Part shown: piece after piece, positions 10,267 through 60,301 of the stretch
Layout of the letters: every line of letters starts with the position of its first letter
Position numbering within the stretch: the first letter of the stretch is position 1
NCBI GenBank assembly: GCA_942490825.1
Contig: CALNYG010000005.1
Location: 198,240 to 262,239 of the forward strand
DNA length: 64,000 nt
Direction of reading: 5' to 3'
DNA from: Candidatus Moraniibacteriota bacterium
GTDB lineage: Bacteria; Patescibacteriota; Minisyncoccia; Moranbacterales; GCA-2747515
Notes under the pieces: model-generated
Seen by the model: the letters and a program-made list of their open reading frames with translations, nothing else
What the model was told of the DNA's origin: nothing
Databases searched by the model: none
Translations under genes and position numbers: made by a program

Positions 10267-10350
10267 TGCGCTTTTTTAATTGGTTTTGAAATTTGATATT
10301 ATTTTAATGAGGAGTTAAAAATTATTAAGTTGAGACAATTAGAAACGTTT

Positions 10351-10383
10351 CGGAATCAGTGGTCTTCGACACACTAATTCCGG
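10351..10383 (+). repeat. Palindromic intergenic element, CGGAAT(C/T)AGTGGTCTTCGACACACTAATTCCGG family
   Basis: 13-bp stem hairpin. A second copy lies at 12349-12382 and a third inside murE (41044-41136). All share the 5' flank (A/G)GAAA(C/T)GTT. Confidence 0.85.
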
Positions 10384-10413
10384 CAAATTAATTAAATTTA
10401 AAATAAAAAGTTT

Positions 10414-11777: not shown

Positions 11778-12209
11778 ATGAAAATGAAAATTGTTACAAT
11801 TGGAAAGCCGAAGCGGGAATTTGAAGGTTTGTTTAATGAATATTTAAAAAGACTTTCGGGTTTTTGTTCAGCTCAGGTTGTGCATATTAAAGAAGGGAAA
11901 AATAATGATGCTCAGATTTTGAGTGAGATTGAGGGTTTTTATTCTGTTTTTTTGGATGAAAAAGGTAAGCAATTTTCGTCGGTTAAATTTTCGGATTTTT
12001 TAGAGAAAAAAAAGAATGAGGGGAATTCTAATTTTGTGTTTGTGATTGGTGGTCCGGATGGTCATTCTGAGGAAGTTAAGAAAAAGGCGGATTTGATTTG
12101 GTCGTTGAGTGAAATGACGTTTCCGCATGATTTGGCGATGGTGATGTTGGCGGAGGGTCTTTATCGGGTGGTTACGATTGGGGCGGGACATCCTTATCAT
12201 CGGGAATAG
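11778..12209 (+). CDS. rlmH: 23S rRNA (pseudouridine1915-N3)-methyltransferase RlmH
   Basis: MKIVTIGKPK .. FVIGGPDGHSEEV .. LSEMTFPHDLAMVMLAEGLYRVVTIGAGHPYHRE. Track start 11697 runs through an intergenic hairpin and was trimmed to ATG 11778. Confidence 0.9.
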   Translation: MKMKIVTIGKPKREFEGLFNEYLKRLSGFCSAQVVHIKEGKNNDAQILSEIEGFYSVFLDEKGKQFSSVKFSDFLEKKKNEGNSNFVFVIGGPDGHSEEVKKKADLIWSLSEMTFPHDLAMVMLAEGLYRVVTIGAGHPYHRE

Positions 12210-12348
12210 ATTGGTAGACTTGTAGAATGTTAGATGGTTAGATTTGTAGAGATATTGTTCTGTAATGTTTTAGGTTGAGTGAAAATTTTTAATTTACGTT
12301 TTTCTGATGTTTTAGTAGTTTAAATAATTTTTCAGTTTGGAAACGTTA

Positions 12349-12382
12349 CGGAATTAGTGGTCTTCGACACACTAATTCCGGC
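12349..12382 (+). repeat. Second copy of the CGGAATTAGTGGTCTTCGACACACTAATTCCGG palindromic element
   Basis: Near-identical to 10351-10383. Confidence 0.85.
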
Positions 12383-17482: not shown

Positions 17483-17510
17483 TTGACAAAACCTCATTTG
17501 TGCGTATAAT
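17483..17510 (+). promoter_or_regulatory. Sigma70-type promoter TTGACA-16-TATAAT
   Basis: TTGACA 17483-17488 and TATAAT 17505-17510, upstream of the surface-protein/sortase pair. Confidence 0.6.
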
Positions 17511-17560
17511 TTAACTTAATCTCTTTTATGGGATTTTTAATTTAGTTAATGATAGTTATC

Positions 17561-18562
17561 ATGAAAAAGGTTTTATTTTCAGGAATGATGTGTGCGGTAA
17601 TGATTGTTTTTTCGTTTGTGATTTCTCAGAAAGATGCTCAAGCTGGAGGTGGTTGGTCTGTTGAAAGTCGTTGCACTGTAGATGGTTGGCAGATGACTCA
17701 GTGTCCAAACCCAATTACAGATATTTTTTCAGATTGTTTTATTTTTTCTGGAGATGTTTTTAATCGAGGGGATCTAGTTTTAATTGTGGATACTATAAAT
17801 GGTGAGTGTCCTGTCTGCAGTAATAAAGTTATTGAAGAGTCAGAGGAGTGTGACGATGGAAATTTGCTAGATGACGACGGTTGTGATTCTGAATGTCAGT
17901 TGGAGCCTTTTTGTGGAGATGGTTATCTTGACGATAATGAAAAATGTGACGATGGAAATATAAATGACGGAGATGGATGTAATTCAACTTGTGAGATTGA
18001 AGAAGTCCTAGAAATTCCAGAAATTCCAGAAATTCCAGAAACTTTAGAAACTCTAGAAATTCCAGAAACTTTAGAAACTCTAGAAATTCCAGAAACTTCA
18101 GAAGATAATGATAAAAACAAGGACAAGGACAAAGACAAGGACAAGGACAAAGACAAGGACAAAAATAAAGAAGGCGACTTTCGAGTAAAAATCAAAACTT
18201 ATGATTGTAATGGAAATGAAGAAAGTAAAAAGATCCAAGGTTCAAAAGTAAAACTATATAAAAGTAGTGGAAAAAAAGCAGATGAAGATAAAACTAATTT
18301 TAAAGGAGAATCTAATTTTTACGATGTCAAAGAAGGGAAATACGAAGTAAAATGTGAAGTTCCTGGATACGTTAGTTTAAAAGATCGAAGTAAAGATTAT
18401 TACAAATCTGGATCAGAAAAAGTTAAAGATGGAAAAAGAGCTCATGAAACTTGTCATCTTATTAAGGCGAGTTGTGATGCAAATGTAAAAGTTGAAAAAT
18501 TAGCACAAACAGGTGGAAGCGTTAAAGATTTAATTCTAAGTATGTTTAATTTTATATTCTAA
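17561..18562 (+). CDS. Secreted Cys-rich-repeat surface protein with C-terminal LAQTG sortase signal
   Basis: Signal peptide MKKVLFSGMMCAVMIVFSFVISQKDAQA. Two CDDGN..DGC..C repeats of the Myxococcus cysteine-rich repeat type, then PEIPE/TLETLEIPE and DKDK tandem repeats. C-terminal LAQTG is followed by a hydrophobic tail. Track start 17549; the second ATG at 17561 is preferred. Confidence 0.7.
   Translation: MKKVLFSGMMCAVMIVFSFVISQKDAQAGGGWSVESRCTVDGWQMTQCPNPITDIFSDCFIFSGDVFNRGDLVLIVDTINGECPVCSNKVIEESEECDDGNLLDDDGCDSECQLEPFCGDGYLDDNEKCDDGNINDGDGCNSTCEIEEVLEIPEIPEIPETLETLEIPETLETLEIPETSEDNDKNKDKDKDKDKDKDKDKNKEGDFRVKIKTYDCNGNEESKKIQGSKVKLYKSSGKKADEDKTNFKGESNFYDVKEGKYEVKCEVPGYVSLKDRSKDYYKSGSEKVKDGKRAHETCHLIKASCDANVKVEKLAQTGGSVKDLILSMFNFIF
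18011..18165 (+). repeat. In-frame tandem repeats (GAAATTCCA / GAAACTTTAGAAACTCTAGAAATTCCA units, then AAGGACAAGGACAAAGAC units)
   Basis: Direct reading. They encode the EIPEIPEIPETLETLEIPETLETLEIPE and DKDKDK.. tracts. Confidence 0.9.
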
Positions 18563-19367: not shown

Positions 19368-19473
19368 GTTATTTTAGTTTTCTTGAAGTTTTTGTGTGGG
19401 GAATATTTCTGGGTTTGGGAATTTGTGGAAATAAAAAGCTATCATTAATTCGATAGTTTTTTGTTTTATGGGC

Positions 19474-19622
19474 TTGACAAGGTTTTTATTCTGTGCTATT
19501 ATTTGGTGTTACGGTATGAGATTGATTAATTTCTATTGGGATGGAAATATGGTTTTTTCTTAATTTTGCAAACTGTCAGATATTATTTAGAGCTTGACAA
19601 AATTAATAAGATATGCTATAAT
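19474..19622 (+). promoter_or_regulatory. Cassette 1 tandem promoters P1 (TTGACA-17-TATTAT) and P2 (TTGACA-17-TATAAT with TGC extended -10)
   Basis: P1 19474-19502; P2 19594-19622. A near-identical copy is at 20386-20534 and a diverged copy at 30939-31086 (-). Confidence 0.75.
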
Positions 19623-19815
19623 ATTTTTATACGATAAGAAATTAAATGTGATTTGTAATTGTAATGTTGTTCTTTGAGATATTTTCATTTTTTCTTCTAT
19701 TTTATTGATTTTTTTGTTCTATATTCAGAAAGTTAAGTTTTAGTTTTTTGAGTTATAGGACAGAAAACAATGATAAATGCAGTGAGATAATATCAATATA
19801 CTGCGGAGAGAAAAG

Positions 19816-20130
19816 ATGAAAGATATTATTATCGATCAACATCTAGGAAAAACAGATTTAAATGAACTTTTGGTTGATTTTATGACCAAAGTTCATGAAA
19901 AGATGTTTAAGGACAATGGCAGGCCAGATGATCTGCGATTTCAGCTTCCCGTTGATGAGACGGGATGCACGGCTGAGCATATTTTAGGGATGCTTCAGTC
20001 CCTTGTAAATCAAGGGCATATCGCTCTTGTTGAGGACGGTGATGACCAGGAAAAAATGCAGAAATTGGCTATAGAAATGGCAACATTTGCGGCTGTTCTG
20101 TATGATCGAGCAGCTGCGAATTTTGAATGA
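19816..20130 (+). CDS. Cassette 1 cargo: hypothetical acidic 104-aa protein
   Basis: RBS GGAGAG 7 nt upstream of ATG. No family recognised. Confidence 0.6.
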   Translation: MKDIIIDQHLGKTDLNELLVDFMTKVHEKMFKDNGRPDDLRFQLPVDETGCTAEHILGMLQSLVNQGHIALVEDGDDQEKMQKLAIEMATFAAVLYDRAAANFE

Positions 20131-20385
20131 GCCGTTTTTAACCTTGTCGTAGGGAACACAATACAAGGAAAGTTCTTTTTGAAAAAAAATAGTTATGGAG
20201 ACCTACGCCATGACTACTCACTTTTTTACTAATCTTAAAAAAATTAGTAAAAAAGTTAAACTTTAAGGTTGAATCAATGTCAATGTACGATTCAACCTTA
20301 GTAATTAAGCATTTCAAATTAAATTTTGGAATATTTATAATAATAAAAAACTATCATTTATTTGGTAGTTTTTTGTTTTATGGGC

Positions 20386-20534
20386 TTGACAAGGTTTTTA
20401 TTCTGTGCTATTATTTGGTGTTACGGTATGAGATTGATTAATTTCTATTGGGATGGAAATATGGTTTTTTGTTAATTTTGCAAACTGTCAGATATTATTT
20501 AGAGCTTGACAAAATTAATAAGATATGCTATAAT
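20386..20534 (+). promoter_or_regulatory. Cassette 2 tandem promoters P1 and P2
   Basis: P1 TTGACA 20386-20391 / TATTAT 20409-20414. P2 TTGACA 20506-20511 / TGC-TATAAT 20526-20534. Confidence 0.75.
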
Positions 20535-20723
20535 ATTTTTATACGATAAGAAATTAAATGTGATTTGTAATCGTAATATTGTTCTTTGAGATATTTTCAT
20601 TTTTTCTCTGGTTTATTGATTTTTTTGTTCTATATTCAGAAAGTTAAGCTTTAGTTTTTTGAATAATAGGACAGAAAAATAAACAATAAAAAGTGCGGTT
20701 GAAATACACTGCGGAGAGAAAAA

Positions 20724-21131
20724 ATGGGACGTTGGTGTCATAGTGGTGGAAACTCGGATGGATACGATGAGATTTCTTTCAAAGAGCTTGGAAATGGGGT
20801 TTCTATTTCCATTGACTCTTTTGAGGGTGCTGTTTCTCCCAATTACGGGTGCAGAGAAGATGTTACGCAACAAATGTTGCATATAGTAAATTCTCTGGGA
20901 AAAAATCGGTTGAGAGCAGAGGATTGGCCTTCTCGTATGGAATGTATGATGAAGGCTGTCATGAAATATTGGTTTTTGCCTACGGTAGATCGGGCGTTGT
21001 ATCAAGCTACTGGATGTGGCTACGACACCGGAATGGGTAGAAGCATAAAAAGATGTCCAAAATGTCGATCTCTTTGGAAAAATAGGGATCGAAAAATATT
21101 TGAGCATCAGCGAAAGACATATGTAGGATAA
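20724..21131 (+). CDS. Cassette 2 cargo: hypothetical 135-aa Cys/Trp-rich protein with C-terminal CPKC motif and basic tail
   Basis: Same RBS block ACTGCGGAGAGAAAA as cassette 1. Preferred over the overlapping ORFs on both strands because of the RBS and promoter orientation. Confidence 0.55.
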   Translation: MGRWCHSGGNSDGYDEISFKELGNGVSISIDSFEGAVSPNYGCREDVTQQMLHIVNSLGKNRLRAEDWPSRMECMMKAVMKYWFLPTVDRALYQATGCGYDTGMGRSIKRCPKCRSLWKNRDRKIFEHQRKTYVG

Positions 21132-21743
21132 CCCTACTTAACAGGAGGACGGAACTCAACGAAGTATCGTTCCTCCTCCTCACTTTCTTACTAATCCTAA
21201 AAAGATTGGTCAAAAAGTTGAGAATAAAAAACTATCATTTATTTGGTAGTTTTTTGTTTTGGTTGGGATTGTATTTATAGTTTTCTTAAAATTTCAAAGT
21301 GAAGATTTCGGATAAATTAATTTCTATCTATAAAACGCGATAAATCGACGTTTCTACAAAAAAATATATTTTCCGGAATGACAGGGATGAGAGATGATGA
21401 AAAGCCCGTGCGGCGAGCACTTTTTAAAATATTAGAAAAATTTATACTGTATTTGTAGTATCAGAAAAACTTACTGGGATTCTTCACTTCATAAATTTAT
21501 CTGCGATAAATTTATTACGTTCAGAATGACGTGGTGGGAGAAATTGACTTTTCTGCTTTAAAATGCGAAAATTAAAATAGTAATTTATTAATTAGAGAAA
21601 TTAGTTTTTTGGCTATGAAGATACATATGCGTTTCATTTAATTTTATTAGAAAATGTATATGTAGATTTATAGCGATTCGTTTAATTTAGAAACGCGATG
21701 AATCGCGTTTCTACAGAAATAAAAATTATTTTTCTTAACAAAT

Positions 21744-23948: not shown

Positions 23949-25401
23949 TGTCACTTACCAATGATAATGTCATACCAGGTTACCAATAGAAATGTCATAC
24001 CTATTAAAATTATGTTAGTTTTACATGTTAACATTTAAAAAACATGAAAAACTATGCAAGATACAATAATCATGACAAATAAGGAATCTCAAAGGTATGA
24101 AATCATAAATAATTTAATAAACAATAAGATAAACGGAACACAAGCATTCAGACAATTAAATTTATCAGTCAGACAAACTAAAAGGTTAAAAGCTAAAGTA
24201 AACAGAAAAGGAATACAAGGAATAATTCATAAAAGCAGGGGGAAAGAAAGTAATAGAAAATTAGATGAAAAATTAAAAAAGAAAATCATAAAAACAATCA
24301 AAGAAAACTATTCAGATTTTTCATCACAATTAACTTATGAAAAATTAAATGAAGTTCATGAAATTAAAATAAGTTACACTTCGACGAGAAGAATTAGAAT
24401 AAACGAAGGTTTAAGTACAGTCAAAAAAAGAAAACAAAATAAAAAATACTTCTCACAAAGAGAAAGAAAAGAACATTATGGAGAATTAGTTCAATTCGAT
24501 GGTTCATATCATGATTGGCTTGAAAATGAAGAAGAGCAATGCCTGTTACTTGCAGTAGACGATGCTACTAGCGAGATAACTCCAGAACTTGATAAAAATG
24601 AAGGTATACAAGCAGTATTTAATTTTTGGAAAGAATACGTACAAGAAAAAGGAAGACCATTAGCTATTTATCTAGATAAATTCAGTACTTACAAAGTAAA
24701 TCACAAAAATGCAACGGACAATCAAGAATTCAAGACACAATTTCAAAGAGCTATGAAAGAATTAGATATACAAGTAATTTTTGCTAATACGCCTCAAGCC
24801 AAGGGAAGAGTAGAAAGAATGAACGAAACTTTACAAGACAGAATGATCAAAGAAATGCGACTAGCTAAAATAAATAGTATCGAACAAGCCGATGAATTTA
24901 TTAAAGAAAAATTTACTCCAGAATTTAATAAAAAATTCAATGTTCCCGCAAAGAAAAAAGGAGACCTACACAGAAAACTAACTAAGCAAGAAAAAGATAA
25001 ATTAAATAATATTTTCTCAATTAAAAGCACTAGAAAAATAAGGAATGATTTTGTAGTTCAATATAAAAATAGATATTTTCAATTAAATGAAATACAACCA
25101 ACTACAGTTTACAAAAAGGATGAAGTAATTATAGAAGAACATTTAGATGATTCAATTCATATTTCTAAAAAAGATAAATATTTAAGTTTTAAAGAATTAC
25201 CACATAAACCCAAAAAAGAAAATGAACTAAAATTACCAGCTATCACTAAAAGAAAATCAGATTACACTCCACCAGCAGATCATCCTTGGAGAAGCTACCA
25301 ATTTAAAAAAGAAAAATTAAAAGCTCAAAAATTAATTAAATTCTAAAGGTATGACATTTCTAAAGAAAACAAAGGTATGACATTTCTATTGGTAGTTGAC
25401 A
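23949..25401 (+). mobile_element. Intact insertion sequence, ISNCY/IS1202-like (rve-type DDE transposase), 1453 bp
   Basis: Terminal IRs TGTCACTTACCAAT / TGTCAACTACCAAT (12/14). Subterminal repeats AATGTCATACC occur twice at each end. A perfect 15-bp direct repeat GTTTTTTTGATTGAC flanks it at 23934-23948 and 25402-25416. Confidence 0.85.
24054..25346 (+). CDS. DDE (rve/integrase-core) transposase with N-terminal HTH
   Basis: LVQFDGSYHDW (D), IYLDKFSTY (D), AKGRVERMNETLQDR (E). Confidence 0.85.
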   Translation: MQDTIIMTNKESQRYEIINNLINNKINGTQAFRQLNLSVRQTKRLKAKVNRKGIQGIIHKSRGKESNRKLDEKLKKKIIKTIKENYSDFSSQLTYEKLNEVHEIKISYTSTRRIRINEGLSTVKKRKQNKKYFSQRERKEHYGELVQFDGSYHDWLENEEEQCLLLAVDDATSEITPELDKNEGIQAVFNFWKEYVQEKGRPLAIYLDKFSTYKVNHKNATDNQEFKTQFQRAMKELDIQVIFANTPQAKGRVERMNETLQDRMIKEMRLAKINSIEQADEFIKEKFTPEFNKKFNVPAKKKGDLHRKLTKQEKDKLNNIFSIKSTRKIRNDFVVQYKNRYFQLNEIQPTTVYKKDEVIIEEHLDDSIHISKKDKYLSFKELPHKPKKENELKLPAITKRKSDYTPPADHPWRSYQFKKEKLKAQKLIKF

Positions 25402-25514
25402 GTTTTTTTGATTGACTTTAAGTGAGTTGTTTGATAAGTTTAAATATCTGGCAATCTGGTCAGATATGGTTAAGGACGTTATTTAAATTTAAATATGTTT
25501 GTGAGAGGATAATT

Positions 25515-25730
25515 ATGAAGATAAGTCTCAATAATTATGTTTTTGTTCAACTTACTGATTATGGTAAATCAGTTTGTAGGGATTATTATAATAAGTATGG
25601 GCAAAAAGCGCCCAGTCTTGAAGGAAAAGTTAAGTTTCTTTTATGGGAGCTTATGAAAATTTTTGGTGAAAAATGTTATCAAGGCAATACTAATGTGTTT
25701 AAAGACTGTTTAATTGAAATTGAAAATTGA
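25515..25730 (+). CDS. Small hypothetical protein (71 aa)
   Basis: ATG at 25515 preceded by GAGAGGA. The track's longer 25422 start lacks support. Followed by terminator hairpin ATTCCGCAA..TTGCGGAATTTTTT (about 25755-25800). Confidence 0.45.
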   Translation: MKISLNNYVFVQLTDYGKSVCRDYYNKYGQKAPSLEGKVKFLLWELMKIFGEKCYQGNTNVFKDCLIEIEN

Positions 25731-25843
25731 GATTGGCAGTTTCAAAGAATGTAAGATTCCGCAATTTTTAGTTAAGAATTTGCGGAATTTTTTGTTTTTT
25801 AGAAATGAAATTTTATAACAAACCATGCTATAATTAAAAGATT

Positions 25844-26524
25844 ATGGAAAAAACTACACAACAATTAAAGAAAGAATATCCACCAAAAGTCTATAAAATA
25901 AAAGACAAAATAAATTTTGTTATAACTGCAATATTATTATTAGAAATAGTATTCGCACTTTTTCGAACTGAATGGATGGTATTATTTATCACAACAATAA
26001 CTCTAATCCTAACTCTGTCAGTTCAACTGGTTACCAAAAAAACCAGTAGTTTTATCTATATTCCCGAAGAACTTCAAATAGCAACTGTTCTTTTTATTTT
26101 CGCAACTTTATTTCTCGGAGAAATTCACGGATATTACGAATCATTTTGGTGGTGGGATTTAGTTTTACATGCAGGTTCGGCAATTGTTTTTGGATTTATT
26201 GGGTTTATAATTTTACTAGTTTTACAAAGAGGAGGGCGAGTCGAAGCAAAAGCATTTTGGTTGGCAATTTTTTCTTTTAGTTTTGCGATGGCAATTGGTG
26301 TTGTGTGGGAGATTTTTGAATTTACTGCTGATCAACTCTTTGATTTCAACATGCAAAAGTCAGGCTTAGTTGATACGATGTGGGATTTGATTGTTAATTC
26401 ATTGGGCGCTTTATTTGCGTCATTTTTTGGATTCTTATATTTAAAAGGAGAGGATAAGTTTTCTTTTGCTGTATTGATGAGCGAGTTTATTAAAAAGAAT
26501 CCACGATTTTTTCGAGATAGATGA
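25844..26524 (+). CDS. Hypothetical polytopic membrane protein
   Basis: About six TM helices; WWWDLVLHAGSA and WEIFEFTADQ motifs. Family not confidently recognised. Confidence 0.5.
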   Translation: MEKTTQQLKKEYPPKVYKIKDKINFVITAILLLEIVFALFRTEWMVLFITTITLILTLSVQLVTKKTSSFIYIPEELQIATVLFIFATLFLGEIHGYYESFWWWDLVLHAGSAIVFGFIGFIILLVLQRGGRVEAKAFWLAIFSFSFAMAIGVVWEIFEFTADQLFDFNMQKSGLVDTMWDLIVNSLGALFASFFGFLYLKGEDKFSFAVLMSEFIKKNPRFFRDR

Positions 26525-26925: not shown

Positions 26926-28203
26926 ATGCCAAAGCCAAACGAATTTGAAGTCCATACTATGGGAGGTAACATGTCTGGAGGTAACCAGGTTTCAGATAAG
27001 TCTCAAGGTATATCAAATGATCCAATGCAAGCGTCACAAGATGCACCATCACAACAAGCACCTTTTTCGTCACAGTTATCTAAATCTAGTTCTATGGGTG
27101 GTGGTATCAGCGGAGGGCAATCGCAGGGTGGACCAAGTCAACCGTTTACAGGAGCGCCAACTTCTTCAAACTTAGGTAATTCAAACGGGAATATCGGAAA
27201 GGCAGGAAATGGCTCAGGTATACAAACTATGGGTGGAATAATGCAAGAAGATGACCTATCTGGAGGTTCATCTAAAAAATTATTAAAAATATTTATAGGA
27301 GTTTTTGTAGTTATTGTTTTGGTGGGGGGAGCTATTTTCGGTGTATCTATGTTAAAAGATAAAGAAGATTTAGCGTCTGGCGACTTAACTGAAGAAGTTG
27401 TTGAAGAAGACTTAGGTTTAAACACTGAAGTAGCTGACTCTTCTACAACTGAAGTATTAGTTGAAACTGAACCTAAAACGACAACTACGAAGGTTCGATA
27501 TTCTGATGAGTTACTTAATTATTTATCAATAGATGTTGAAAGTGAGAGTGTTTTCACAGATATTGAAAATGAGTTAGATATCATAAGAAAAAATTTGCCA
27601 TCGCAGAATTTTTCGGAGCCAATTACTTTTATTATAACCAATAAACAAAATAAACCTATTTCTTTTAGCGATTTTTCTGTGAAGGCTAATATGAATATTC
27701 CAGGGGATGTTTTGTTAGCTTTGGATGATAGATTTGAACTATATGCTTTTAATGATTTTAGTGCTGGAGTACGTTTTGGTTTTCGAGTTGATGTTAAAAA
27801 TGAAACAGCTTTACTAACAGCTTTAGAAGCTGAATCTTCAGCTATTCCTGCAACTACTATGGTTTTCTTTAAAGATTTTAAATTAGACGATGCTTCAGAA
27901 ATGACTTTTAAGGACGGTACTTATAAAGAATATTCTGTTAAATATTTAAATTTAAATGCGACGGAGACTAATTCAGTTGATTATGTGATTGATGGTGATC
28001 AGTGGGTTTTGGGAACAAGTCAGAAGACTTTAAGATCTATCCTAGATAAGTTAGATAAAAATAAAGAATCTTCCACTGCAGTTGATGGCGAAGAAATTGT
28101 TGATGCTGAAGCAGATAAGGATGTGGCTTCTTCTACAAAATCAGAAAGTTCAAGTGATGAAGACTTAACTACTCAAAGCGATGAGTCCAAAATGATTAAT
28201 TAG
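26926..28203 (+). CDS. Hypothetical single-pass membrane protein with G/S/Q-rich N-terminus
   Basis: Low-complexity N-terminus, TM helix LLKIFIGVFVVIVLVGGAIFGV, extracytoplasmic domain of unknown family. An extended -10 promoter (TGCTATAAT, 26877-26885) lies upstream. Confidence 0.5.
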   Translation: MPKPNEFEVHTMGGNMSGGNQVSDKSQGISNDPMQASQDAPSQQAPFSSQLSKSSSMGGGISGGQSQGGPSQPFTGAPTSSNLGNSNGNIGKAGNGSGIQTMGGIMQEDDLSGGSSKKLLKIFIGVFVVIVLVGGAIFGVSMLKDKEDLASGDLTEEVVEEDLGLNTEVADSSTTEVLVETEPKTTTTKVRYSDELLNYLSIDVESESVFTDIENELDIIRKNLPSQNFSEPITFIITNKQNKPISFSDFSVKANMNIPGDVLLALDDRFELYAFNDFSAGVRFGFRVDVKNETALLTALEAESSAIPATTMVFFKDFKLDDASEMTFKDGTYKEYSVKYLNLNATETNSVDYVIDGDQWVLGTSQKTLRSILDKLDKNKESSTAVDGEEIVDAEADKDVASSTKSESSSDEDLTTQSDESKMIN

Positions 28204-29435: not shown

Positions 29436-30004
29436 TCGGTTGTTTGTAAAGGGTAATAGGTAATGGTAACACTGGGTTTTTTTTGTGTCAAATTTTTTTA
29501 TTTTTAATGTTTTTTGTGCTCGCCGCACGGGCTTATGATACATAATTTTAAAAACTTCCTGTCATTCTGAACCTGCCTTTGTCGGCAGACAGGCGGATTT
29601 ATTTTTTTGTTAGAAAAAATAAAGAAGTGAAGAATCCCCTACGGATTATCATAAATCTTTAAAATTAAAATATCAGAAAAACTTATTGAGATTGCCACGT
29701 CTCTCCTTATAGTCGTTCCTCGCAATGACGTGTATAAAAACAAAAAACCACTGACTTTATGTTAGTGGTTTTTTATACTCTATTAAAATTCAAATTAGTT
29801 TAAATTTTAAATTGAGTGGCTTTATCTATATCGTGTTAGATAAAGCCGTGATGAATCTTTGTTCATCGTTGATTTTTTGCGTTTACACGTAACGCTTTTC
29901 TCTCTAATTTTTTTAAGAATTAGAGAGTGGGTGAGAGGAGAACATATAACAAATAATTATCATCCTCTTCCTCTCCTTTGTTTTTTGAAAAGAGTTTAAG
30001 AGAT

Positions 30005-30733
30005 TTAAACTTGGAACTTTCTAGTCCGTTTATCGCGTCGCAGTCTTTTACAACATGTAGCACAAGAGCCTTTTTTCCCGCCAGCATTTTCTTTCTTACA
30101 AGTAGGACAAAAAGTTCTGGGAATTATCCGAGTTATTTTGTAGCCTCCTTCAGAATATAAAATTTCAGCTGTTCCTCTGGTGGATTTCCCCGTCGCCCTC
30201 CAGATACTGCCGTTAGGTAGTGAAAAAGTTTTATTTCCTTCATACCTCGTAACCCACCCATACCTGACGGTACTATAGGAAGTGTCTTCCAGTCCGTGTG
30301 CGAGAGCGACCTCTAATGTTGGCTTGTTCATTGAATCGAGTGACTCGATGAACTTGATACTGTTCTCCACAACCTGCCTTGGTAGGGTGGAATACCAGTT
30401 TCCGCAAGCTGCAGCTAACATGATGATAGTTCGCCCTTTCTCTGCGTCCTTTTCGGTTATCTCTCCGGAGGCTATTTTTCTTTCAGCCACTGCTTTGGCG
30501 ACTTTGTTCACATTAATGCTGAAGCAAAGTCCAACGACTGAGCCTTTTTCGTTTTGGTATTTTTTCCTTATTTCTCTTTCTTCTTGAGGAGGAAAAATTT
30601 CTAAGGCAAATCTCAGAAGCGGAATAATCTTTTTGTGTGGTCTCAGGGAGACTGCACAAAAATAATTTCCAGACATATCGTTGTGGGCTCTACAGCTTTT
30701 TTTCAAAAAATTTGATACGATGGTTCCTCTCAT
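30005..30733 (-). CDS. Cassette 3 cargo: hypothetical 242-aa protein with C-terminal CPTC..CATCC zinc-ribbon-like motif and basic tail
   Basis: RBS GGAGGA upstream of ATG 30733. No family recognised. Confidence 0.6.
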   Translation of the reverse strand: MRGTIVSNFLKKSCRAHNDMSGNYFCAVSLRPHKKIIPLLRFALEIFPPQEEREIRKKYQNEKGSVVGLCFSINVNKVAKAVAERKIASGEITEKDAEKGRTIIMLAAACGNWYSTLPRQVVENSIKFIESLDSMNKPTLEVALAHGLEDTSYSTVRYGWVTRYEGNKTFSLPNGSIWRATGKSTRGTAEILYSEGGYKITRIIPRTFCPTCKKENAGGKKGSCATCCKRLRRDKRTRKFQV

Positions 30734-30938
30734 TGTTGTTCCTCCTGCGGAATTTTAACATATTTTATTGACAAGGATTTGCTTGATTTTCATCTAAAAA
30801 ACCAACAAAGTTAGTTACTTAAAGAAAACCAAGTCATAAATTCATCAATAAAACAAAAGAAAAACTCTCTTAATCTCTCTAATTTTTAAGAAACAATTAC
30901 GATTACAAATCTCAATGAATTTCTTATCGTATGAACAT

Positions 30939-31086
30939 ATTATAGCATATCTTATTAATCTTGTCAAGTCTTGAAAATAATCCTCAAAACTTATAAAAAT
31001 TAACAAATAACTATAATTGCTACAATTCAGTTTTGAATAACTTCATTGCAACACCAAATAATAGCACGAAATAAAAATCTTGTCAA
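30939..31086 (-). promoter_or_regulatory. Cassette 3 tandem promoters P1 and P2 (minus strand)
   Basis: P2 is TTGACA (rc 30962-30967), a 17-nt spacer and TGC-TATAAT (rc 30939-30947). P1 is TTGACA (rc 31081-31086), a 17-nt spacer and TATTAT (rc 31058-31063). The 5' leader block ATACGATAAGAAATT..GATTTGTAATCGTAAT is conserved with cassettes 1 and 2. Confidence 0.7.
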
Positions 31087-31542
31087 GCTTTGAAAATAGA
31101 CGTTTAGTATTTTAGATGGGTAGACTTTTAGACAATTAGATTTGTAGAGACATTGCACTGCAATGTTTTTGGGTAGATTGATAATTTTATGTAACGAAGA
31201 ATTTCAGTGAGTTTTTCTAATATTTAATTTTCAAGTTTTGTGATTCTCTGTGGGGGATTCCTGTCTGCCGACAGGCAGGCTTCACTGCGTAAATTTTTTT
31301 TATAAAAAATTTACTTCGTTCAGAATGACAGAAAATTTTTTAGGGGTTCGCAGTAGAAATGAATTGCAATTCATTTCTATAGATGTGTATCATAGCCCGT
31401 GCGGCGAGCACTTTATTAATTTTTAAAATTTTCATTTATCATACGGATAGGCACGAGACATTATTTTAAAATTTATTTTGAAAGTTTTGATTAAATGTTA
31501 TACTTTTAAAGTAACTATAATTTTTTCAATTTTAATAAAATC

Positions 31543-40404: not shown

Positions 40405-41817
40405 ATGGAAATTATTTTGGCTTATGTTAAAAAATTGATTCCGAAGAAGTTGTTTAAAAAATTACAACCGATTTATCATTATGTTTTTAACTTTTTGGCA
40501 GCGGTGGTTTATGGTTTTCCGTCTAATAAATTGATTGTGGTTGGGGTTACGGGGACGACGGGGAAGACGACGACGACTTTTATGATTGCGGAAATGTTGA
40601 AAAATGCTGGGGTGAAGGTGGGGTATACTTCGACGGCGATGTTTGGTGATGGGGAGACGGAGCGATTGAATGATAAGAAAATGACGATGTTGGGGCGGAT
40701 GTTTACGCAGAATATGATTTCGCGGATGGTGCGGAATGGTTGCGAGGTGGCGATTATTGAGACGACTTCGGAGGGGGCGGTGCAGTTTCGGCATCGGTTT
40801 ATTAATTATGACATGATGGTTTTCACGGGGATTTATCCTGAGCATATTGAATCGCACGGAAGTTTTGAGAATTATAAAAAAGCGAAAATTGAAATTTTTA
40901 AGCACTTGAAGATTTGCGGAAAGAAGGACTTGAATTTGTTAAATGGTAGTGAAGAGAAAATTAAAAAGACTTCTATCATTGATGGTGATGATGAATTTGC
41001 TGGGGAATTTTTGGAACCTTGGGCGGAGGAGAAAATTGTTTTTAGAAATGTTGCGGAAGCAGTGGTCTGTCGACACACTACTTCCGGCGAAAATTCCCGG
41101 GTTGAAAATTTCCAACCCCTACAGGATAATGACGTGTCTTTTGTGAATTATAAATTTAGGGAAATTAATAATGTTGGGGTTAAATTTGATTTTGATGGTG
41201 AGGAGATTCAGATGAAAATTTTGGGTGATTTTAATTCTAAAAATGCGACGATTGCTGGTGCGGTTGGTTTGGCTTTAGGATTGAATAAAAGGCAAATTAG
41301 GTCTGGATTGGAAAAAGTTGTGGGGATTCCTGGGCGTTTGGAACGGATTGATGAGGGTCAGGATTTTACGGTGATTGTGGATTATGCGTTTGAACCGGTG
41401 GCGGTTGGTAAGCTTTATGATATGGTTGGGAATTTGGATCATGAAAAAATTATTCATGTTTTGGGTAGTGCGGGTGGGGGTCGTGATATGGCTCGGCGGG
41501 AGATATTGGGTAAGTTGGCTGGTGAAAAAGCGGATTTTGTGATTGTTACGAATGAGGATCCGTATGATGAGGATCCGATGGAAATTATTAAAATGGTAGC
41601 GGATGGTGCGAGAAACGTTGGTAAGGTTGAAGATGATAATTTATTTTTAATTGAGGATCGTGGAGAGGCGATTGAAAAGGCGATTGGTTTGGCGAGGGAA
41701 GGTGATGTGGTTTTGATTACGGGGAAGGGTTCGGAACAGGCGATTGTGGTTGGGAATGGGAGGAAGGTTATGTGGGATGATCGGGATGTTGTTAGGGAAG
41801 TTTTGAGAAAGATGTAA
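40405..41817 (+). CDS. murE: Mur ligase, MurE-type (UDP-MurNAc-L-Ala-D-Glu : diamino acid ligase)
   Basis: P-loop VGVTGTTGKTTT, FNSKNATIA, DYAFEP (DYAHTP equivalent), NEDPYDEDP (DNPRxEDP equivalent). The track start 40363 runs through the repeat box and was trimmed to ATG 40405. Confidence 0.85.
   Translation: MEIILAYVKKLIPKKLFKKLQPIYHYVFNFLAAVVYGFPSNKLIVVGVTGTTGKTTTTFMIAEMLKNAGVKVGYTSTAMFGDGETERLNDKKMTMLGRMFTQNMISRMVRNGCEVAIIETTSEGAVQFRHRFINYDMMVFTGIYPEHIESHGSFENYKKAKIEIFKHLKICGKKDLNLLNGSEEKIKKTSIIDGDDEFAGEFLEPWAEEKIVFRNVAEAVVCRHTTSGENSRVENFQPLQDNDVSFVNYKFREINNVGVKFDFDGEEIQMKILGDFNSKNATIAGAVGLALGLNKRQIRSGLEKVVGIPGRLERIDEGQDFTVIVDYAFEPVAVGKLYDMVGNLDHEKIIHVLGSAGGGRDMARREILGKLAGEKADFVIVTNEDPYDEDPMEIIKMVADGARNVGKVEDDNLFLIEDRGEAIEKAIGLAREGDVVLITGKGSEQAIVVGNGRKVMWDDRDVVREVLRKM
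41044..41136 (+). repeat. Intergenic-type palindromic repeat inserted in frame inside murE
   Basis: AGAAATGTTGCGGAAGCAGTGGTCTGTCGACACACTACTTCCGGCGAAAA.. aligns with the intergenic copies AGAAACGTTTCGGAATCAGTGGTCTTCGACACACTAATTCCGGC (10341-10384) and 12340-12384. It encodes RNVAEAVVCRHTTSGENSRVENFQPLQDNDV. Confidence 0.8.
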
Positions 41818-47547: not shown

Positions 47548-47613
47548 ATTTTTATTGGGAAGAATTATTTTTTTAGTGATTTTATTATAGCATAAGCAAA
47601 AAAGTCTAAATGT

Positions 47614-47808
47614 ATGTCATCTCGGAAAATATATTTTCTTTTCGAGTGTGGCGAGAAATTAGAAAATAATTTATCCGTGATCCAGAAATTTTAAAATCAT
47701 AATTAAATTTTGGAGTTTAGTTTTTTGCTGGTAGTTTCTGGATACCGGATAGACGAATTTAAATCAATCGCTACGCTCTTGAATAAATTCTGTCTTCCGG
47801 CATGACAT
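47614..47808 (+). mobile_element. ~195-bp MITE, copy 1 (termini ATGTCAT..ATGACAT)
   Basis: Aligns over its full length with 48803-48999 (+) and 62316-62530 (-). Imperfect terminal IRs ATGTCATCTCGGAA / ATGTCATGCCGGAA. Confidence 0.8.
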
Positions 47809-47942
47809 GTCTGGGAGTTGACTATGAATTATTGTAGGAATTCAAAATGCTGAATGGTGAAAAGCCCGTGCGGCGAGCACTATTTTTTTATTTAATTTTT
47901 TAAACATGTTATAATTTAACTGTAATTTAATAAAATAAAACT

Positions 47943-48759: not shown

Positions 48760-48802
48760 TTTTTAAATAAAAAATTCAGTTATTTTCTGAAGTCTTTTAA
48801 AT

Positions 48803-48999
48803 ATGTCATCTCGGAAAATATATTTTCTTTTCGAACGGAGTGAGAAACTAGAAAATAATTTATCCGTGATCCAGAAACTTTAAAATTATAATTAAATTTT
48901 GGAGTTTAGTTTTTTTCTTGTAATTTCTGGATACCAGATAGACTAATTTGTATTCAATCGCTGTCGCTCTTGAACAAATTATGTCTTCTGGTATGACAT
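48803..48999 (+). mobile_element. ~195-bp MITE, copy 2
   Basis: See copy 1. Its right end reads AATGTCATACCAG on the opposite strand. Confidence 0.8.
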
Positions 49000-49056
49000 T
49001 ACGGGAGATTTTTTAAAATAAAAACATTCTAATTTCTCAATTCTAAATTCACCAAA

Positions 49057-57953: not shown

Positions 57954-58355
57954 ATGACGATAAAAATTCAAAAATTCGTGATGATGTTTGTTTTAGGTAT
58001 GATGGTTGTTTCACCAATGGTTGTTGATGCTGCGGATACAAAAAAAGTTAGCACAAAAAAGGCAGAAGATTCAAGTGAAGGTTTAGTGAAGCCTGATACA
58101 CCTAAAGGGATTAAGGACAATACAGATTTGAAAGCGATGTTGAAGATTGTAATTGAAGCAATTCTATATATTATAGGAACTCTTTCATTATTGATGATTG
58201 TAATTGGTGGTGTAATTTATGTTACTGCTGGTGATTCAGGAAGAGCTGATATGGCAAAGGCTTATATTACCTATGCTATTATTGGTTTAGTGGTTGCTCT
58301 AGTTGGATTATCTATAATTAACTTAGTAATTGATAAATTAGGAGCTACTACTTAG
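57954..58355 (+). CDS. Pilin-like two-TM protein with signal peptide
   Basis: GTLSLLMIVIGGVIYVTAGDSGRADMAKAYITYAIIGLVVALVGLSIINLV; strong RBS AAAGGAGG. Confidence 0.65.
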   Translation: MTIKIQKFVMMFVLGMMVVSPMVVDAADTKKVSTKKAEDSSEGLVKPDTPKGIKDNTDLKAMLKIVIEAILYIIGTLSLLMIVIGGVIYVTAGDSGRADMAKAYITYAIIGLVVALVGLSIINLVIDKLGATT

Positions 58356-58546
58356 GAGCTTAAGTTATTTTTAGGTTTTTTATAAAAAAGCACTTTTTAT
58401 AAGGTGCTTTTTTATTTTTTATTTTTTAGTGCTATAATAGTTATATAAATTTATTAACTTATATTTGAATTTTAAAATTGTGTATCATAGCCCGTGCGGC
58501 AGGCACCTTCATTTTTTAATCTAATAATTACTAAACTAAAACAAAT

Positions 58547-59026
58547 ATGAAATTTTTTTTAAAAACTTTTTTAGCAGTATTTATGCTATTTTTTATTTTT
58601 TCAAATAATAATGTTTTAGCTCAACCTGCTGAAAATACTGGAACATCTTCAATCAAGACTATTACTCCAGGTGAAAATAGAAAAACTAAACCTCCAACTA
58701 AAAAAGTTGCTCCAAATTCAGCTCAAGCTTCATCAACTACCACTACTAAAGGTGGCGTGAAAGTTCCAACAAGCGACGACTTGGGAGGTCTTTCTGACAA
58801 AGATATAAAAGGAACACTTGAAACAGTAATAGATACAATATTGGCTATCGTTGGAACTCTTTCATTGTTGATGATTGTTGTGGGTGCGGTGATATTTATT
58901 GTTGCGGGAGATAATAGAGATTTAGCAGAGACAGCACAGAGTATGATTACTTATGCTATTGTAGGATTAGTAGTTTCATTGCTTAGTTATGCTGTGGTGA
59001 TATGGGTATTTGATGCTTTGAGTTAA
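58547..59026 (+). CDS. Pilin-like two-TM protein with signal peptide and T/S/P-rich variable region
   Basis: GTLSLLMIVVGAVIFIVAGDNRDLAETAQSMITYAIVGLVVSLLSYAVV. Confidence 0.65.
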   Translation: MKFFLKTFLAVFMLFFIFSNNNVLAQPAENTGTSSIKTITPGENRKTKPPTKKVAPNSAQASSTTTTKGGVKVPTSDDLGGLSDKDIKGTLETVIDTILAIVGTLSLLMIVVGAVIFIVAGDNRDLAETAQSMITYAIVGLVVSLLSYAVVIWVFDALS

Positions 59027-59037
59027 AAGTAAAATTT

Positions 59038-59316
59038 ATGAATAATTTTGGAACAAAAAATTTAGGATTAGAAAAAGAGGTGATCGCTCAAGAAATTTTT
59101 TTGAAATTTGCGGCAGGGGCTTTGAGTTTTGTTTTTATTGGAGCGTTTTTGATGGGAGTGGTTGGAGCGGTGATCTGGGTAACTTCAGGAGGAAATGAGG
59201 ATAGAAATGATAGTTCTTCTATGATGATAAAGTCATCATTGGTTGGGATGATCGGATCGTTTATTGGTTACGTGGCATTGAGAATTTATGCAAATGTGAT
59301 TGGGGTAGATTTTTAG
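59038..59316 (+). CDS. Pilin-like two-TM protein (short form)
   Basis: FIGAFLMGVVGAVIWVTSGGNEDRNDSSSMMIKSSLVGMIGSFIGYVAL. Confidence 0.6.
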   Translation: MNNFGTKNLGLEKEVIAQEIFLKFAAGALSFVFIGAFLMGVVGAVIWVTSGGNEDRNDSSSMMIKSSLVGMIGSFIGYVALRIYANVIGVDF

Positions 59317-59512
59317 AAGAATAGATTTGTAGACAGGTAGATAAGTAGACTTTTAGATGTTGTTAGTTCAATCTTGTAGATTGAATCTAGTGTTTGTGCC
59401 AATTTAAAGTTTTTATAAAACTTGAAAAATTGAGTGATTTTTAAAGTTTGATATAAACGAATGGTTCAATCAGAATGATTGAACCAACAGTAATTACTAA
59501 ATTAAAACAAAT

Positions 59513-60301
59513 ATGAAATTTTTTTTTAAAACTTTTTTAGCAGTATTCATGCTATTTTTTATTTTTTCAAATAATAATGTTTTAGCTGAACCAGCTCAAC
59601 CAGCTGGAGCAGGTTCTAATCCAAGTTCAGTTAGTGTTCCAAGGACAGGTCCAGCGACTGGAAATGCTGGAGGAGCTTCAACTAAATTTCCAGATCCAGC
59701 TTCAGCTTCAACTAAAAAAGTTGCTCCAAAACCATTAGATAAACCCACAACAAACACTTCTACGAAACCAAATTTAACTGCTAATTCTTCAGGAAATAAA
59801 TCAATTGAGTTTAAAAATCCAATAAGTAAAAATACCGTTGAGGATCTTTTGATAAGTGCAATGGCGGTTATTCGAAATGTAGTGGCGGCTTTGGCGATTT
59901 TGATGATAGTGATTGGGGCGGTGATGTGGATTTTGTCAGGAACAACAGGACAGACAGAAAAAGCAAAAACTGTTATTCAGTCGGCAGTAATTGGATTGGC
60001 GATTGCGTTGGCGGCACCGACATTTATTGGTGAAATTTATGGTGTTTTAGGTAAAGATACGCCAGAAGTTGAAGGTGCTGACTTTAGTTTGAGTGTTTAT
60101 GATATTGCTGTAAATATAACTAATTTAATTTTAGGATTTATTGGGGTATTATCGATTTTGATGATTATTGTAGGCGGAGTAATGTGGATGACAAATCAAA
60201 GTGATGTAGCTAAGAAGATGGTTAAGGCAGCAGTTATTGGTTTGGTTATTGCGTTGACTTCTTTGGTTATTGTGAAAGCAATTGTAGGGATTTTTGGGTA
60301 A
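59513..60301 (+). CDS. Pilin-like protein with two tandem pilin domains
   Basis: The signal peptide is nearly identical to that of 58547. Domain 1: LAILMIVIGAVMWILSGTTGQTEKAKTVIQSAVIGLAIALA. Domain 2: LSILMIIVGGVMWMTNQSDVAKKMVKAAVIGLVIALTSLV. Confidence 0.65.
   Translation: MKFFFKTFLAVFMLFFIFSNNNVLAEPAQPAGAGSNPSSVSVPRTGPATGNAGGASTKFPDPASASTKKVAPKPLDKPTTNTSTKPNLTANSSGNKSIEFKNPISKNTVEDLLISAMAVIRNVVAALAILMIVIGAVMWILSGTTGQTEKAKTVIQSAVIGLAIALAAPTFIGEIYGVLGKDTPEVEGADFSLSVYDIAVNITNLILGFIGVLSILMIIVGGVMWMTNQSDVAKKMVKAAVIGLVIALTSLVIVKAIVGIFG

Follow-up and report, generated by a model that had tools for sequence, protein, structure and literature searches.

We analysed a 64-kb stretch of contig CALNYG010000005.1, from an assembly of Candidatus Moraniibacteriota; the whole of this stretch is referred to here as the window. 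In it, a sortase gene (Pfam Sortase, E 3.5e-23) and pnp enclose a tandem pair of gene cassettes in which near-identical regulatory flanks surround unrelated coding sequences. Pairwise alignment gives a head-to-tail repeat with a period of 912 nucleotides (nt) and units at 19433-20344 and 20345-21256; the ungapped core of the repeat (family D4) is 294 nt long at 93% identity. The common parts are about 380 nt of 5' flank, which holds a terminator hairpin, two predicted promoters (P1 and a perfect P2) and a 190-nt leader, together with a block on the 3' side. Between these parts lie ORF-A in unit 1 and ORF-B in unit 2 (ORF, open reading frame). A third, diverged cassette (unit 3, with ORF-C) is found on the minus strand, from 31086 to 29736, between a DHH-family gene and polA. 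The first-pass annotation of this DNA had described the two head-to-tail units, which the alignment bears out, and had missed the third cassette. The features of the three units are listed below in their reading direction (UTR, untranslated region).

19433-19463, plus strand: boundary hairpin T0, with A-tract, 12-bp stem and U-tract, terminator-like, downstream of the sortase gene
19474-19502, plus strand: unit 1 P1, with identities of 100% (unit 2) and 90% (unit 3)
19594-19622, plus strand: unit 1 P2, 97% identical to unit 3, with 16 of 17 spacer bases included
19629-19815, plus strand: unit 1 structured leader, folding with a z-score of -4.5
19630-19663, about 19683-19698 and about 19702-19778, plus strand: 5'-terminal hairpin, CU tract and inner hairpin (about 35 bp) of the unit 1 leader, which also has a small hairpin
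19816-20130, plus strand: ORF-A, 104 amino acids
20217-20255, plus strand: unit 1 3' block, CTCAC and an A/U hairpin (UUUUUUACUAAU / AUUAGUAAAAAA)
20265-20299, plus strand: extra 3'-UTR hairpin AAGGTTGAATC..GATTCAACCTT, present in unit 1 and absent from unit 2, with different hairpins at this place in unit 3
20345-20375, plus strand: boundary hairpin T1, putative terminator of unit 1
20386-20414, plus strand: unit 2 P1, from the promoter scan
20506-20534, plus strand: unit 2 P2, 12/12 consensus with TG
20541-20723, plus strand: unit 2 structured leader, architecture as in unit 1, z-score -6.5
20724-21131, plus strand: ORF-B, 135 amino acids
about 21143-21178, plus strand: GGAGG/CCUCC hairpin before the unit 2 3' block
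21179-21217, plus strand: unit 2 3' block, CTCAC and hairpin ACUAAUC / GAUUGGU
21226-21256, plus strand: boundary hairpin T2, putative terminator of unit 2 and end of the array
31058-31086, minus strand: unit 3 P1, TTGACA-17-TATTAT with TG
30939-30967, minus strand: unit 3 P2, 12/12 consensus with TG
30734-30932, minus strand: unit 3 structured leader, z-score -4.3, its 5'-terminal hairpin as in units 1 and 2 and its inner hairpin carrying 5 compensatory pairs
30005-30733, minus strand: ORF-C, 242 amino acids
29893-29935, minus strand: unit 3 3' block, CTCAC(CCAC) and hairpin CUCUCUAAUU / AAUUAGAGAG, with 3 compensatory pairs relative to unit 1
29736-29774, minus strand: putative unit 3 terminator AAAAAACCACTAAC..GTCAGTGGTTTTTTGTTTTT, with the flanks of the boundary hairpin and another stem

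The boundary hairpin AAAAARCTATCATTNATTNGNTAGTTTTTTG occurs exactly three times, at 19433, 20345 and 21226, where shuffled sequences lead us to expect none. It reads as an ordinary intrinsic terminator, with an A-tract on one side and a U-tract on the other. P1 is TTGACA-17-TATTAT and TG-extended (19474 in unit 1, 20386 in unit 2), and P2 is TTGACA-17-TATAAT, a 12/12 match to consensus that is also TG-extended (19594 and 20506). Only 0.07 perfect 12/12 promoter sites are expected in the whole window, which holds four. The ribosome-binding site (RBS) block ACTGCGGAGAGAAAARATG, at 19800 and 20708, and the 3' block CTCACTTTYTTACTAATCYTAAAAA, at 20217 and 21179, each occur twice with no occurrence expected. 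Hairpins, dual promoters and both conserved blocks had all been noticed in the first-pass annotation and were recovered here. It had also placed a short diverged stretch before the RBS, which proves to be a small hairpin's loop, the stem being conserved. Unit 1 has a 3' segment of about 90 nt of its own, containing the hairpin at 20265-20299, which unit 2 lacks.

The third cassette was located by a window-wide scan for near-consensus promoters. Its two promoters are TTGACA-17-TATTAT at 31086 and a perfect TTGACA-17-TATAAT at 30967, both TG-extended, and they are offset by 119 nt, compared with 120 nt in units 1 and 2. The block spanning them is 77% identical to the tandem units over 198 nt (blastn, E 9e-35). 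A three-sequence nhmmer profile finds unit 3 at E 5e-95, and the three units are its only significant full-length matches in the 64 kb. The 3' side of unit 3 carries, in order, a GGAG/CUCC hairpin, CTCAC(CCAC) and an A/U hairpin homologous to the 3' block; further hairpins follow and then the terminator, in which an AAAAAAC...GTTTTTTGTTTT frame like that of the boundary hairpin encloses a different stem. What lies upstream is unlike in each case, being the sortase gene for unit 1, ORF-A for unit 2 and intergenic repeats on the polA side for unit 3. Finding another copy, diverged and with yet another unrelated ORF, strengthens the case for common flanks around different cargo, and agrees with the earlier remark that this is not ordinary gene duplication.

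A short upstream ORF begins about 9 nt past the predicted P1 start site in each unit (19518-19565, 20430-20477 and, on the minus strand, about 31042-31016). Its ATG keeps its position across the units and its peptide is not kept, reading MRLINFYWDGNMVFS in unit 1, ending in C in unit 2 and reading MKLFKTEL in unit 3; no Shine-Dalgarno (SD) sequence precedes it. A gene for a 337-residue secreted protein (17549-18562), containing Cys-rich DUF4215 repeats, tracts of (EIP/ETL)n and (DK)n and one SdrD/SpaA-like domain, lies directly upstream of the sortase gene and has a perfect 12/12 promoter of its own at 17483. We rejected the idea that the cassettes merely carry a generic 'house' promoter of this genome, as the other near-consensus promoters (17483, 60642) have no flanking homology to the units.

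Leader RNA structure and conservation of the flanks

Folded separately, the three leaders give one architecture, with z-scores of -4.5, -6.5 and -4.3 in units 1, 2 and 3. The consensus fold of the three-sequence alignment contains 61 pairs in five helices, and 92.9% of its cells are paired, compared with 46-56% when the partners are slid. Double-sided changes occur at 8 pairs, of which the inner hairpin accounts for five; the slid controls have 1-4 such pairs, and none of 500 shuffles reached the observed value. Between units 1 and 2 alone, all seven substitutions in paired columns keep the pair, while indels and transversions fall in loops and bulges. The 3' hairpin behaves in the same way between units 1 and 3, with three compensatory pairs and 86% of positions paired (42-53% when slid). 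In both leaders of the tandem pair, the antisense strand folds much less stably than the sense strand (sense first: -49.5 versus -17.9 kcal/mol in unit 1, -54.0 versus -30.9 kcal/mol in unit 2). Because of this asymmetry, and because the stems need G-U pairs, the folding points to an RNA-level feature of the sense transcript rather than a DNA palindrome. A miniature inverted-repeat transposable element (MITE) was ruled out as the source of the leader hairpin, the stem of which depends on G-U pairs and is much weaker on the opposite strand. Searched against Rfam 15, the leader and the 3' block match no family at the gathering threshold and their permissive matches fall far below it; only tRNAs pass in the window. 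The first-pass annotation had recognised no described family in the leader, and this still holds.

Conservation is unevenly spread along the flanks. Units 1 and 2 are identical in the P1 and P2 cores (100% each), where unit 1 and unit 3 retain 90% and 97% (16/17 spacer bases in P2), and the 5'-terminal hairpin is nearly as well kept, at 97% and 89% in the same two comparisons. The CU tract falls to 83% and 46% and the inner hairpin to 88% and 52%; the remaining segments are mostly 87-100% identical between units 1 and 2 (53% in the stem and loop of the small hairpin) and 35-67% identical between units 1 and 3. The more distant comparison has the footprint of purifying selection on both promoters and the 5'-terminal hairpin. 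The third copy shows that promoters, 5' hairpin and RNA stems alike are under selection. Within the tandem pair, the 5' flank is 97-100% identical in its distal part and identity drops toward the cargo, from 100% in the promoters to 83-88% near the coding sequence, and this gradient suggests either a recent copy or gene-conversion tracts that end short of the heterology. Homology stops exactly at the ATG and restarts 47-86 nt past the stop codon, at a distance that differs from unit to unit.

The predicted fold bears directly on translation initiation. In units 1 and 2 the CU tract is predicted to pair with the SD and AUG, forming a long closing helix around the inner hairpin, and the unpaired probability from SD to AUG is accordingly only 0.09-0.10 in the leaders of ORF-A and ORF-B. 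The same quantity averages 0.475 (standard deviation 0.16) in 50 other genes of the window, of which only one or two are as low. In unit 3 the CU tract is predicted to pair with codons 2-4, leaving the SD accessible. Hairpins at the very 5' end are known to stabilise mRNA, as in Escherichia coli ompA and the aprE-type 5' stem-loops of Bacillus subtilis, and SD-sequestering leaders are familiar from the fourU and ROSE thermometers, in which a U-rich tract pairs with the SD and melts in the physiological range. The cassette leaders resemble both, with a hairpin beginning 1-2 nt downstream of the start site predicted for P2 (A19629) and, in units 1 and 2, a U/C-rich tract paired to SD and AUG; they have no sequence homology to either. 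An RNA thermometer is nevertheless unsupported by the predicted melting. In A and B the SD and AUG are paired (unpaired probability 0.09-0.16) and the closing helix is predicted to stay shut from 20 to 50 C, and in unit 3 the SD is unpaired, the helix covering codons 2-4 instead.

From this anatomy we infer how transcription starts and ends, how the mRNA is stabilised and how its translation is gated. Each unit would act as an autonomous, monocistronic transcription unit, headed by two tandem sigma-70-type promoters 120 nt apart, of which P2 is perfect and has an extended -10 element. The first hairpin of the leader (about 190 nt) begins 1-2 nt from its predicted 5' end, and in the predicted fold the CU-rich tract closes a long helix onto the purine-rich initiation region, around the inner hairpin of about 35 bp. 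A strong GGAG SD and one small orphan ORF follow, and then a 3' UTR with the conserved CTCAC and A/U hairpin, ending at a putative intrinsic terminator. An anatomy of this kind leads us to expect that the three genes are transcribed strongly and co-ordinately from their like promoters, and the 5'-terminal and 3' hairpins would stabilise the mRNA. The closing helix may limit or gate initiation, since in A and B it buries SD and AUG, and in C it covers codons 2-4; to open it would take processing of the long hairpin or a trans-acting factor.

Cargo proteins and the search for further copies

The three cargo proteins differ in almost every respect. ORF-A encodes 104 residues with an isoelectric point (pI) of 4.6 and is predicted to be helical. 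ORF-B (135 residues, pI 9.1) has 6 Cys and 4 Trp and ends in RCPKC and a basic tail, and ORF-C (242 residues, pI 9.8) has 9 Cys and a C-terminal zinc-ribbon-like motif, CPTC-x11-CATCC, also followed by a basic tail. The earlier observation that the coding sequences of the tandem pair have no visible similarity stands up to closer comparison: ORF-A and ORF-B give no BLASTP alignment at E < 100, and their tblastx, blastn and Smith-Waterman scores are at or below shuffle means, with no likeness in any frame. Frameshifted homology among the cargos was ruled out by tblastx. ORF-C has no relation to ORF-A or ORF-B beyond the CPxC motif, and the proteins have no common N-terminus.

All three look like genuine coding genes, judging by their coding scores, strong SDs and host-like G+C content. 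Codon-usage log-odds are positive only in the annotated frame. The coding score of ORF-A (0.217) is typical of host genes, which range from 0.09 to 0.40; that of ORF-B (0.047) is low, yet the best of its six frames. A strong SD precedes each ORF. The G+C content of the cargo (0.40-0.42) is that of the neighbouring genes, and at third codon positions (GC3) it is 0.34-0.40 against a host mean of 0.25 (standard deviation 0.09), which is above the mean and within range (z 1.1-1.7).

No relative of any cargo protein was found. In a word-indexed search of 5.8 billion clustered proteins, A, B and C each match only themselves, as does ORF-A in an exhaustive phmmer search of 1.84 billion representatives and in a tblastn search of the window. 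ORF-A and ORF-B have nothing significant in Pfam, PHROGs, PADLOC, NCBIfam or PDB sequences, in keeping with the first-pass view that neither belongs to a described family, and ORF-C has nothing significant in Pfam or PHROGs, the two libraries searched for it. Single-sequence AlphaFold2 models of ORF-A and ORF-B are poor (pLDDT, the predicted local distance difference test score, of 50 and 37), and a Foldseek search of the PDB with the low-confidence ORF-A model (pLDDT 50) returned no match below E 0.9. A guess that ORF-A is MazG-like was rejected. The Cys motifs and basic tails of B and C would suit zinc-dependent nucleic-acid binding, which we offer as conjecture. A type II toxin-antitoxin pair is a bicistronic operon with one autoregulated promoter and homology to known toxin or antitoxin families. 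Acidic ORF-A and basic ORF-B were rejected as such a pair, given the putative terminator and two promoters between them and no Pfam, NCBIfam or PADLOC match.

Further copies of the module were sought in relatives and in sequence collections. The closest relatives of the polynucleotide phosphorylase encoded by pnp, among 185,579 species representatives, come from Moranbacteria genomes at 60-67% identity; these relatives do not share the genes upstream of pnp. The first-pass annotation had asked whether the module surrounds other cargos in related genomes, and neither blastn nor a covariance model found any in the relatives' pnp loci. The model (R1), run over 35 of the 80 pnp loci examined, gave insignificant matches only, and the best of these (L005, E 0.04) proved on inspection to be an unrelated promoter region. 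None of the viral, genome and metagenome collections scanned contains an exact 22-mer of the module. A gapped promoter-to-RBS pattern had 17 matches in metagenomes, all of them due to chance, and no viral contig (IMG/VR scans) matched any of three patterns that the three copies share unchanged. Searches by blastn of phages (INPHARED) and plasmids (PLSDB) were also empty.

A Pfam scan of 14 neighbouring ORFs (12.6-30.7 kb) revealed no Phage_integrase domain, and no tyrosine or serine recombinase adjoins either locus. The only transposase-like ORF (24054-25346; HTH_32 and a weak rve_3) lies on the far side of pnp. Together with a 226-residue ORF it occupies 24054-26524, between pnp and a gene at 26926; the two look inserted, since the gene at 26926 directly follows pnp in Moranbacteria relatives L001-L009.

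Known systems and the origin of the module

The closest described phenomenon is that of putative mobile promoters, so the pattern already has a name in the literature. These are upstream regions, at least 50 nt long and identical at 80% or more of positions, that precede non-homologous coding sequences (Matus-Garcia, Nijveen and van Passel 2012, PMC3488235). Doublets of them are about 92% identical on average, with more variation near the start codon, and local recombination has been proposed as the origin of species-specific pairs (PMC3488235). The cassettes are alike in having very similar upstream regulatory DNA before non-homologous coding sequences in one genome, as a small family, and in including a near-identical doublet of the kind taken as a recent event, with variation growing toward the start codon. 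Identity between units 1 and 2 is 88-100% over some 380 nt, and neither the downstream nor the upstream coding sequences align. Unit 3, at 77% over 198 nt, lies below the 80% rule and would count only as an older, 'expanded family' member. In contrast to the published cases, the conserved unit is far longer here, at about 380 nt, and takes in two promoters as well as the entire structured 5' UTR; the 3'-UTR hairpin and terminator context are conserved too, two members stand in tandem and all cargos are orphans. Reuse of a promoter before unrelated genes has usually involved 50-100 nt of upstream DNA, and the reuse of one regulatory module for unrelated genes seen here is unusually complete, not unprecedented.

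A functional analogue is provided by the erp or 'upstream homology box' loci of Borrelia, where one promoter-operator-leader is joined to diverse coding sequences and brings about co-expression of otherwise unrelated proteins (PMC10016077). Conservation in erp continues into the signal peptide, with its lipobox, and the first mature residues, and the loci are allelic sites on multicopy cp32 prophages (PMC10016077). In the cassettes, by contrast, homology stops at the ATG and the proteins have no common N-terminus; they are chromosomal and lie between housekeeping genes, and no operator-binding proteins are known for them.

On balance we think it probable, with ample room for doubt, that the cassettes are a lineage-specific family of at least three self-contained monocistronic modules on a Moranbacteria-like Patescibacteria chromosome, one module having been propagated onto unrelated orphan genes and the tandem pair having been recently duplicated locally or homogenised. 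Promoters, 5' UTR, 3' UTR and terminator would have spread as one module, a form of 'promoter propagation' whose mode we infer to be recombination or duplication, and the tandem pair would be a recent local copy or be kept homogeneous by gene conversion. Several observations weigh against this account. The terminator stems hold only 2-3 G-C pairs and were not called by a consensus scan. With only three copies, two of them nearly identical, the covariation rests in effect on one diverged sequence, and the leader structure was derived from the same alignment that was used to score it. Occlusion of the SD is not kept in unit 3, where the unpaired probability is 0.57-0.6, and neither the module nor its ORFs occur in 80 pnp loci of relatives (blastn, tblastn). 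Published mobile promoters comprise the 5' side only, and simple promoter copying leaves the conserved 3' UTR unexplained, which hints at whole-cassette ancestry.

That ancestry could take the form of whole-cassette duplications of one ancestral gene, whose coding sequences diverged beyond recognition while the UTRs were held by purifying selection and, in the tandem pair, gene conversion. Duplication of whole units would be the simplest explanation of homology on both flanks, and it would fit the identity gradient away from the cargo, which resembles the edges of gene-conversion tracts, as well as the ending of both ORF-B and ORF-C in Cys-x2-Cys and a basic tail and the near-saturation (35-60% identity) of the unconstrained flank parts of unit 3. 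No pair of cargos, however, has protein or DNA similarity in any frame, with Smith-Waterman scores at or below shuffle means, and their lengths and pI values are widely different. The tandem-pair leader is still 83-93% identical by the ATG and the 3' block 86% identical, so total loss of coding similarity is implausible without replacement, and we regard this history as decidedly unlikely. It is also unlikely that the cassettes are remnants of mobile elements, namely moron-like modules, or modules of phage early genes, that a virus or plasmid of the lineage brought in and left in the chromosome. Phage morons are independent units of promoter, gene and terminator (PMC3594210), a definition that the cassettes match by sequence, each having its own strong promoters and terminator around a single small gene for an orphan protein; they are single-gene insertions between unrelated housekeeping genes (sortase/pnp; DHH/polA), with G+C and GC3 above the host mean. 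Morons do not normally share one regulatory module, and any prophage context is missing, with no phage or plasmid genes nearby, no PHROGs match below E 0.1 and no match in the IMG/VR, INPHARED or PLSDB searches. The composition is only mildly off that of the host (GC3 z 1.1-1.7) and within its range, ORF-A has host-like codon usage and the promoters are of the ordinary host sigma-70 type.

Still more doubtful, and unsupported by the analysis, is the design suggested by the first-pass annotation, a dedicated cassette-exchange or expression-site system in which the conserved flanks would be recombination handles for swapping or stacking cargo at a fixed, highly expressed locus. It is true that three unrelated cargos have both flanks in common, that two units follow each other head to tail with one hairpin per junction, and that all cargos are orphans with the somewhat raised GC3 expected of imports. 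The layout recalls an integron array, in which unrelated small ORFs stand head to tail and are separated by a repeated imperfect palindrome. Integrons, though, have intI with attI and Pc, their attC sites (R''-L''/L'-R', GTTRRRY) lie at cassette 3' ends and their cassettes are mostly promoterless. We rejected an integron here: no intI was found among the 14 neighbouring ORFs, attC architecture is absent, each unit has two consensus promoters and the palindrome appears to be a terminator with a U-tract. A GTTRRRY-type site does not recur at the cargo junctions (GTTAAAC after the 3' hairpin in unit 1 only, GTTGAGA in unit 2 and none after the unit 3 hairpin, ...GAAAAGCGTTAC), nor does any other conserved crossover motif, and neither locus encodes a tyrosine or serine recombinase nearby. 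Homology ends at the ATG and resumes at unequal distances after the stop, and no alternative cargo lies between such flanks in the scanned viral, genome, metagenome, phage and plasmid collections. Unit 3 lies at another locus in the other orientation and is about 25-50% diverged, which fits old vertical copies and not active exchange. That two strain alleles of one locus were joined in tandem by error in a metagenome-assembled genome is hardly credible. The source is an assembly of an uncultured lineage, and near-identical flanks are the type of repeat that confuses assemblers; but the copies are not collapsed and differ by single-nucleotide polymorphisms, indels, a different first hairpin and the roughly 90 nt specific to unit 1, a simple bubble has no path from 3' flank to 5' flank, and the independent third cassette elsewhere shows the design to be genuine.

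A bolder extension, to which we give little credence, is that the conserved UTR modules form a chromosomal 'expression socket', serving as homology arms for capturing, stacking and swapping newly acquired or newly born genes by homologous recombination in an episymbiont with a reduced genome. On this reading any gene so captured would at once come under strong promoters and a terminator and have its mRNA stabilised and gated, making the socket an integrase-free functional analogue of an integron. If true, this would explain why all the cargos are orphans.

To return to the propagated module that we favour, what is unusual is a complete envelope around three unrelated, taxonomically unique genes, made up of promoters in tandem, a structured leader of 190 nt that covariation supports, a hairpin in the 3' UTR and a terminator context. 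The host belongs to a candidate-phyla-radiation lineage in which gene regulation has hardly been studied. We see the chief value of the finding in its new structured leader and in the way that a reusable expression module is linked with orphan genes in a genome of the Patescibacteria. If our inferences hold, they provide a natural portable high-expression module for Patescibacteria and a new structured leader RNA to characterise, and they suggest how orphan genes become wired into expression in reduced genomes. Should the flanks also mediate cargo capture, this would be a new kind of gene-cassette system; should they not, it is a well-resolved, modest case of regulatory-module propagation.

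Other repeats in the window

Several other repeats were noticed in the window. A MITE-like element of about 200 nt is present in two copies (47613-47810 and 48802-49000) at 91% identity, with terminal inverted repeats ATGTCATCTCGGAA ... CCGGCATGACAT. The copies lie upstream of the unrelated genes lemA (47943) and htpX (49057), providing a second case within the window of common upstream DNA, by a different element. At 57954-60301 there are tandem paralogous small membrane proteins (133, 159, 92 and 262 residues), two of which are nearly identical in signal peptide and upstream region (repeat D16, 90%); these are ordinary paralogs, in useful contrast to the cassettes.

Two dispersed repeats and a set of periodic arrays complete the picture, with one further short repeat. 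The intergenic repeat TGTGGGGGATTCTTCACTGCATAAATTTATCTGCGATAAATTTATTACGTTCAGAATGAC, about 100 nt long, is found at 9678, 14550, 15720, 21476, 26624, 31213-31343 and 60457 (families D3, D10, D11 and D17), with copies directly downstream of the tandem array and upstream of cassette 3. A G+C-rich hairpin repeat, AGCCCGTGCGGCGAGCAC, flanked by A/T runs, occurs at 11 or more intergenic sites (families D2, D6 and D7; for example 9830, 12543, 15863, 21403, 26816, 31394, 40358, 47863, 56238, 58488 and 60614), and may be a shared terminator or an element of the repetitive extragenic palindromic (REP) kind. Arrays of TAGAnnnn with an 8-nt period (5-6 repeats), beside the palindrome TGTAGAGACATTGCACTGCAATGTCTC, were seen at 12207, 15578, 26564, 31105-31189, 39802, 53828, 56067, 59314 and 60304; these may be protein-binding arrays, and one abuts the -35 element of cassette 3 P1. 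A 46-nt repeat with a hairpin, TTAGAAACGTTTCGGAATCAGTGGTCTTCGACACACTAATTCCGGC, is present in three copies (10339-10384, 12337-12382 and 41042-41087; family D20), at 93% and 61% identity to the reference copy.

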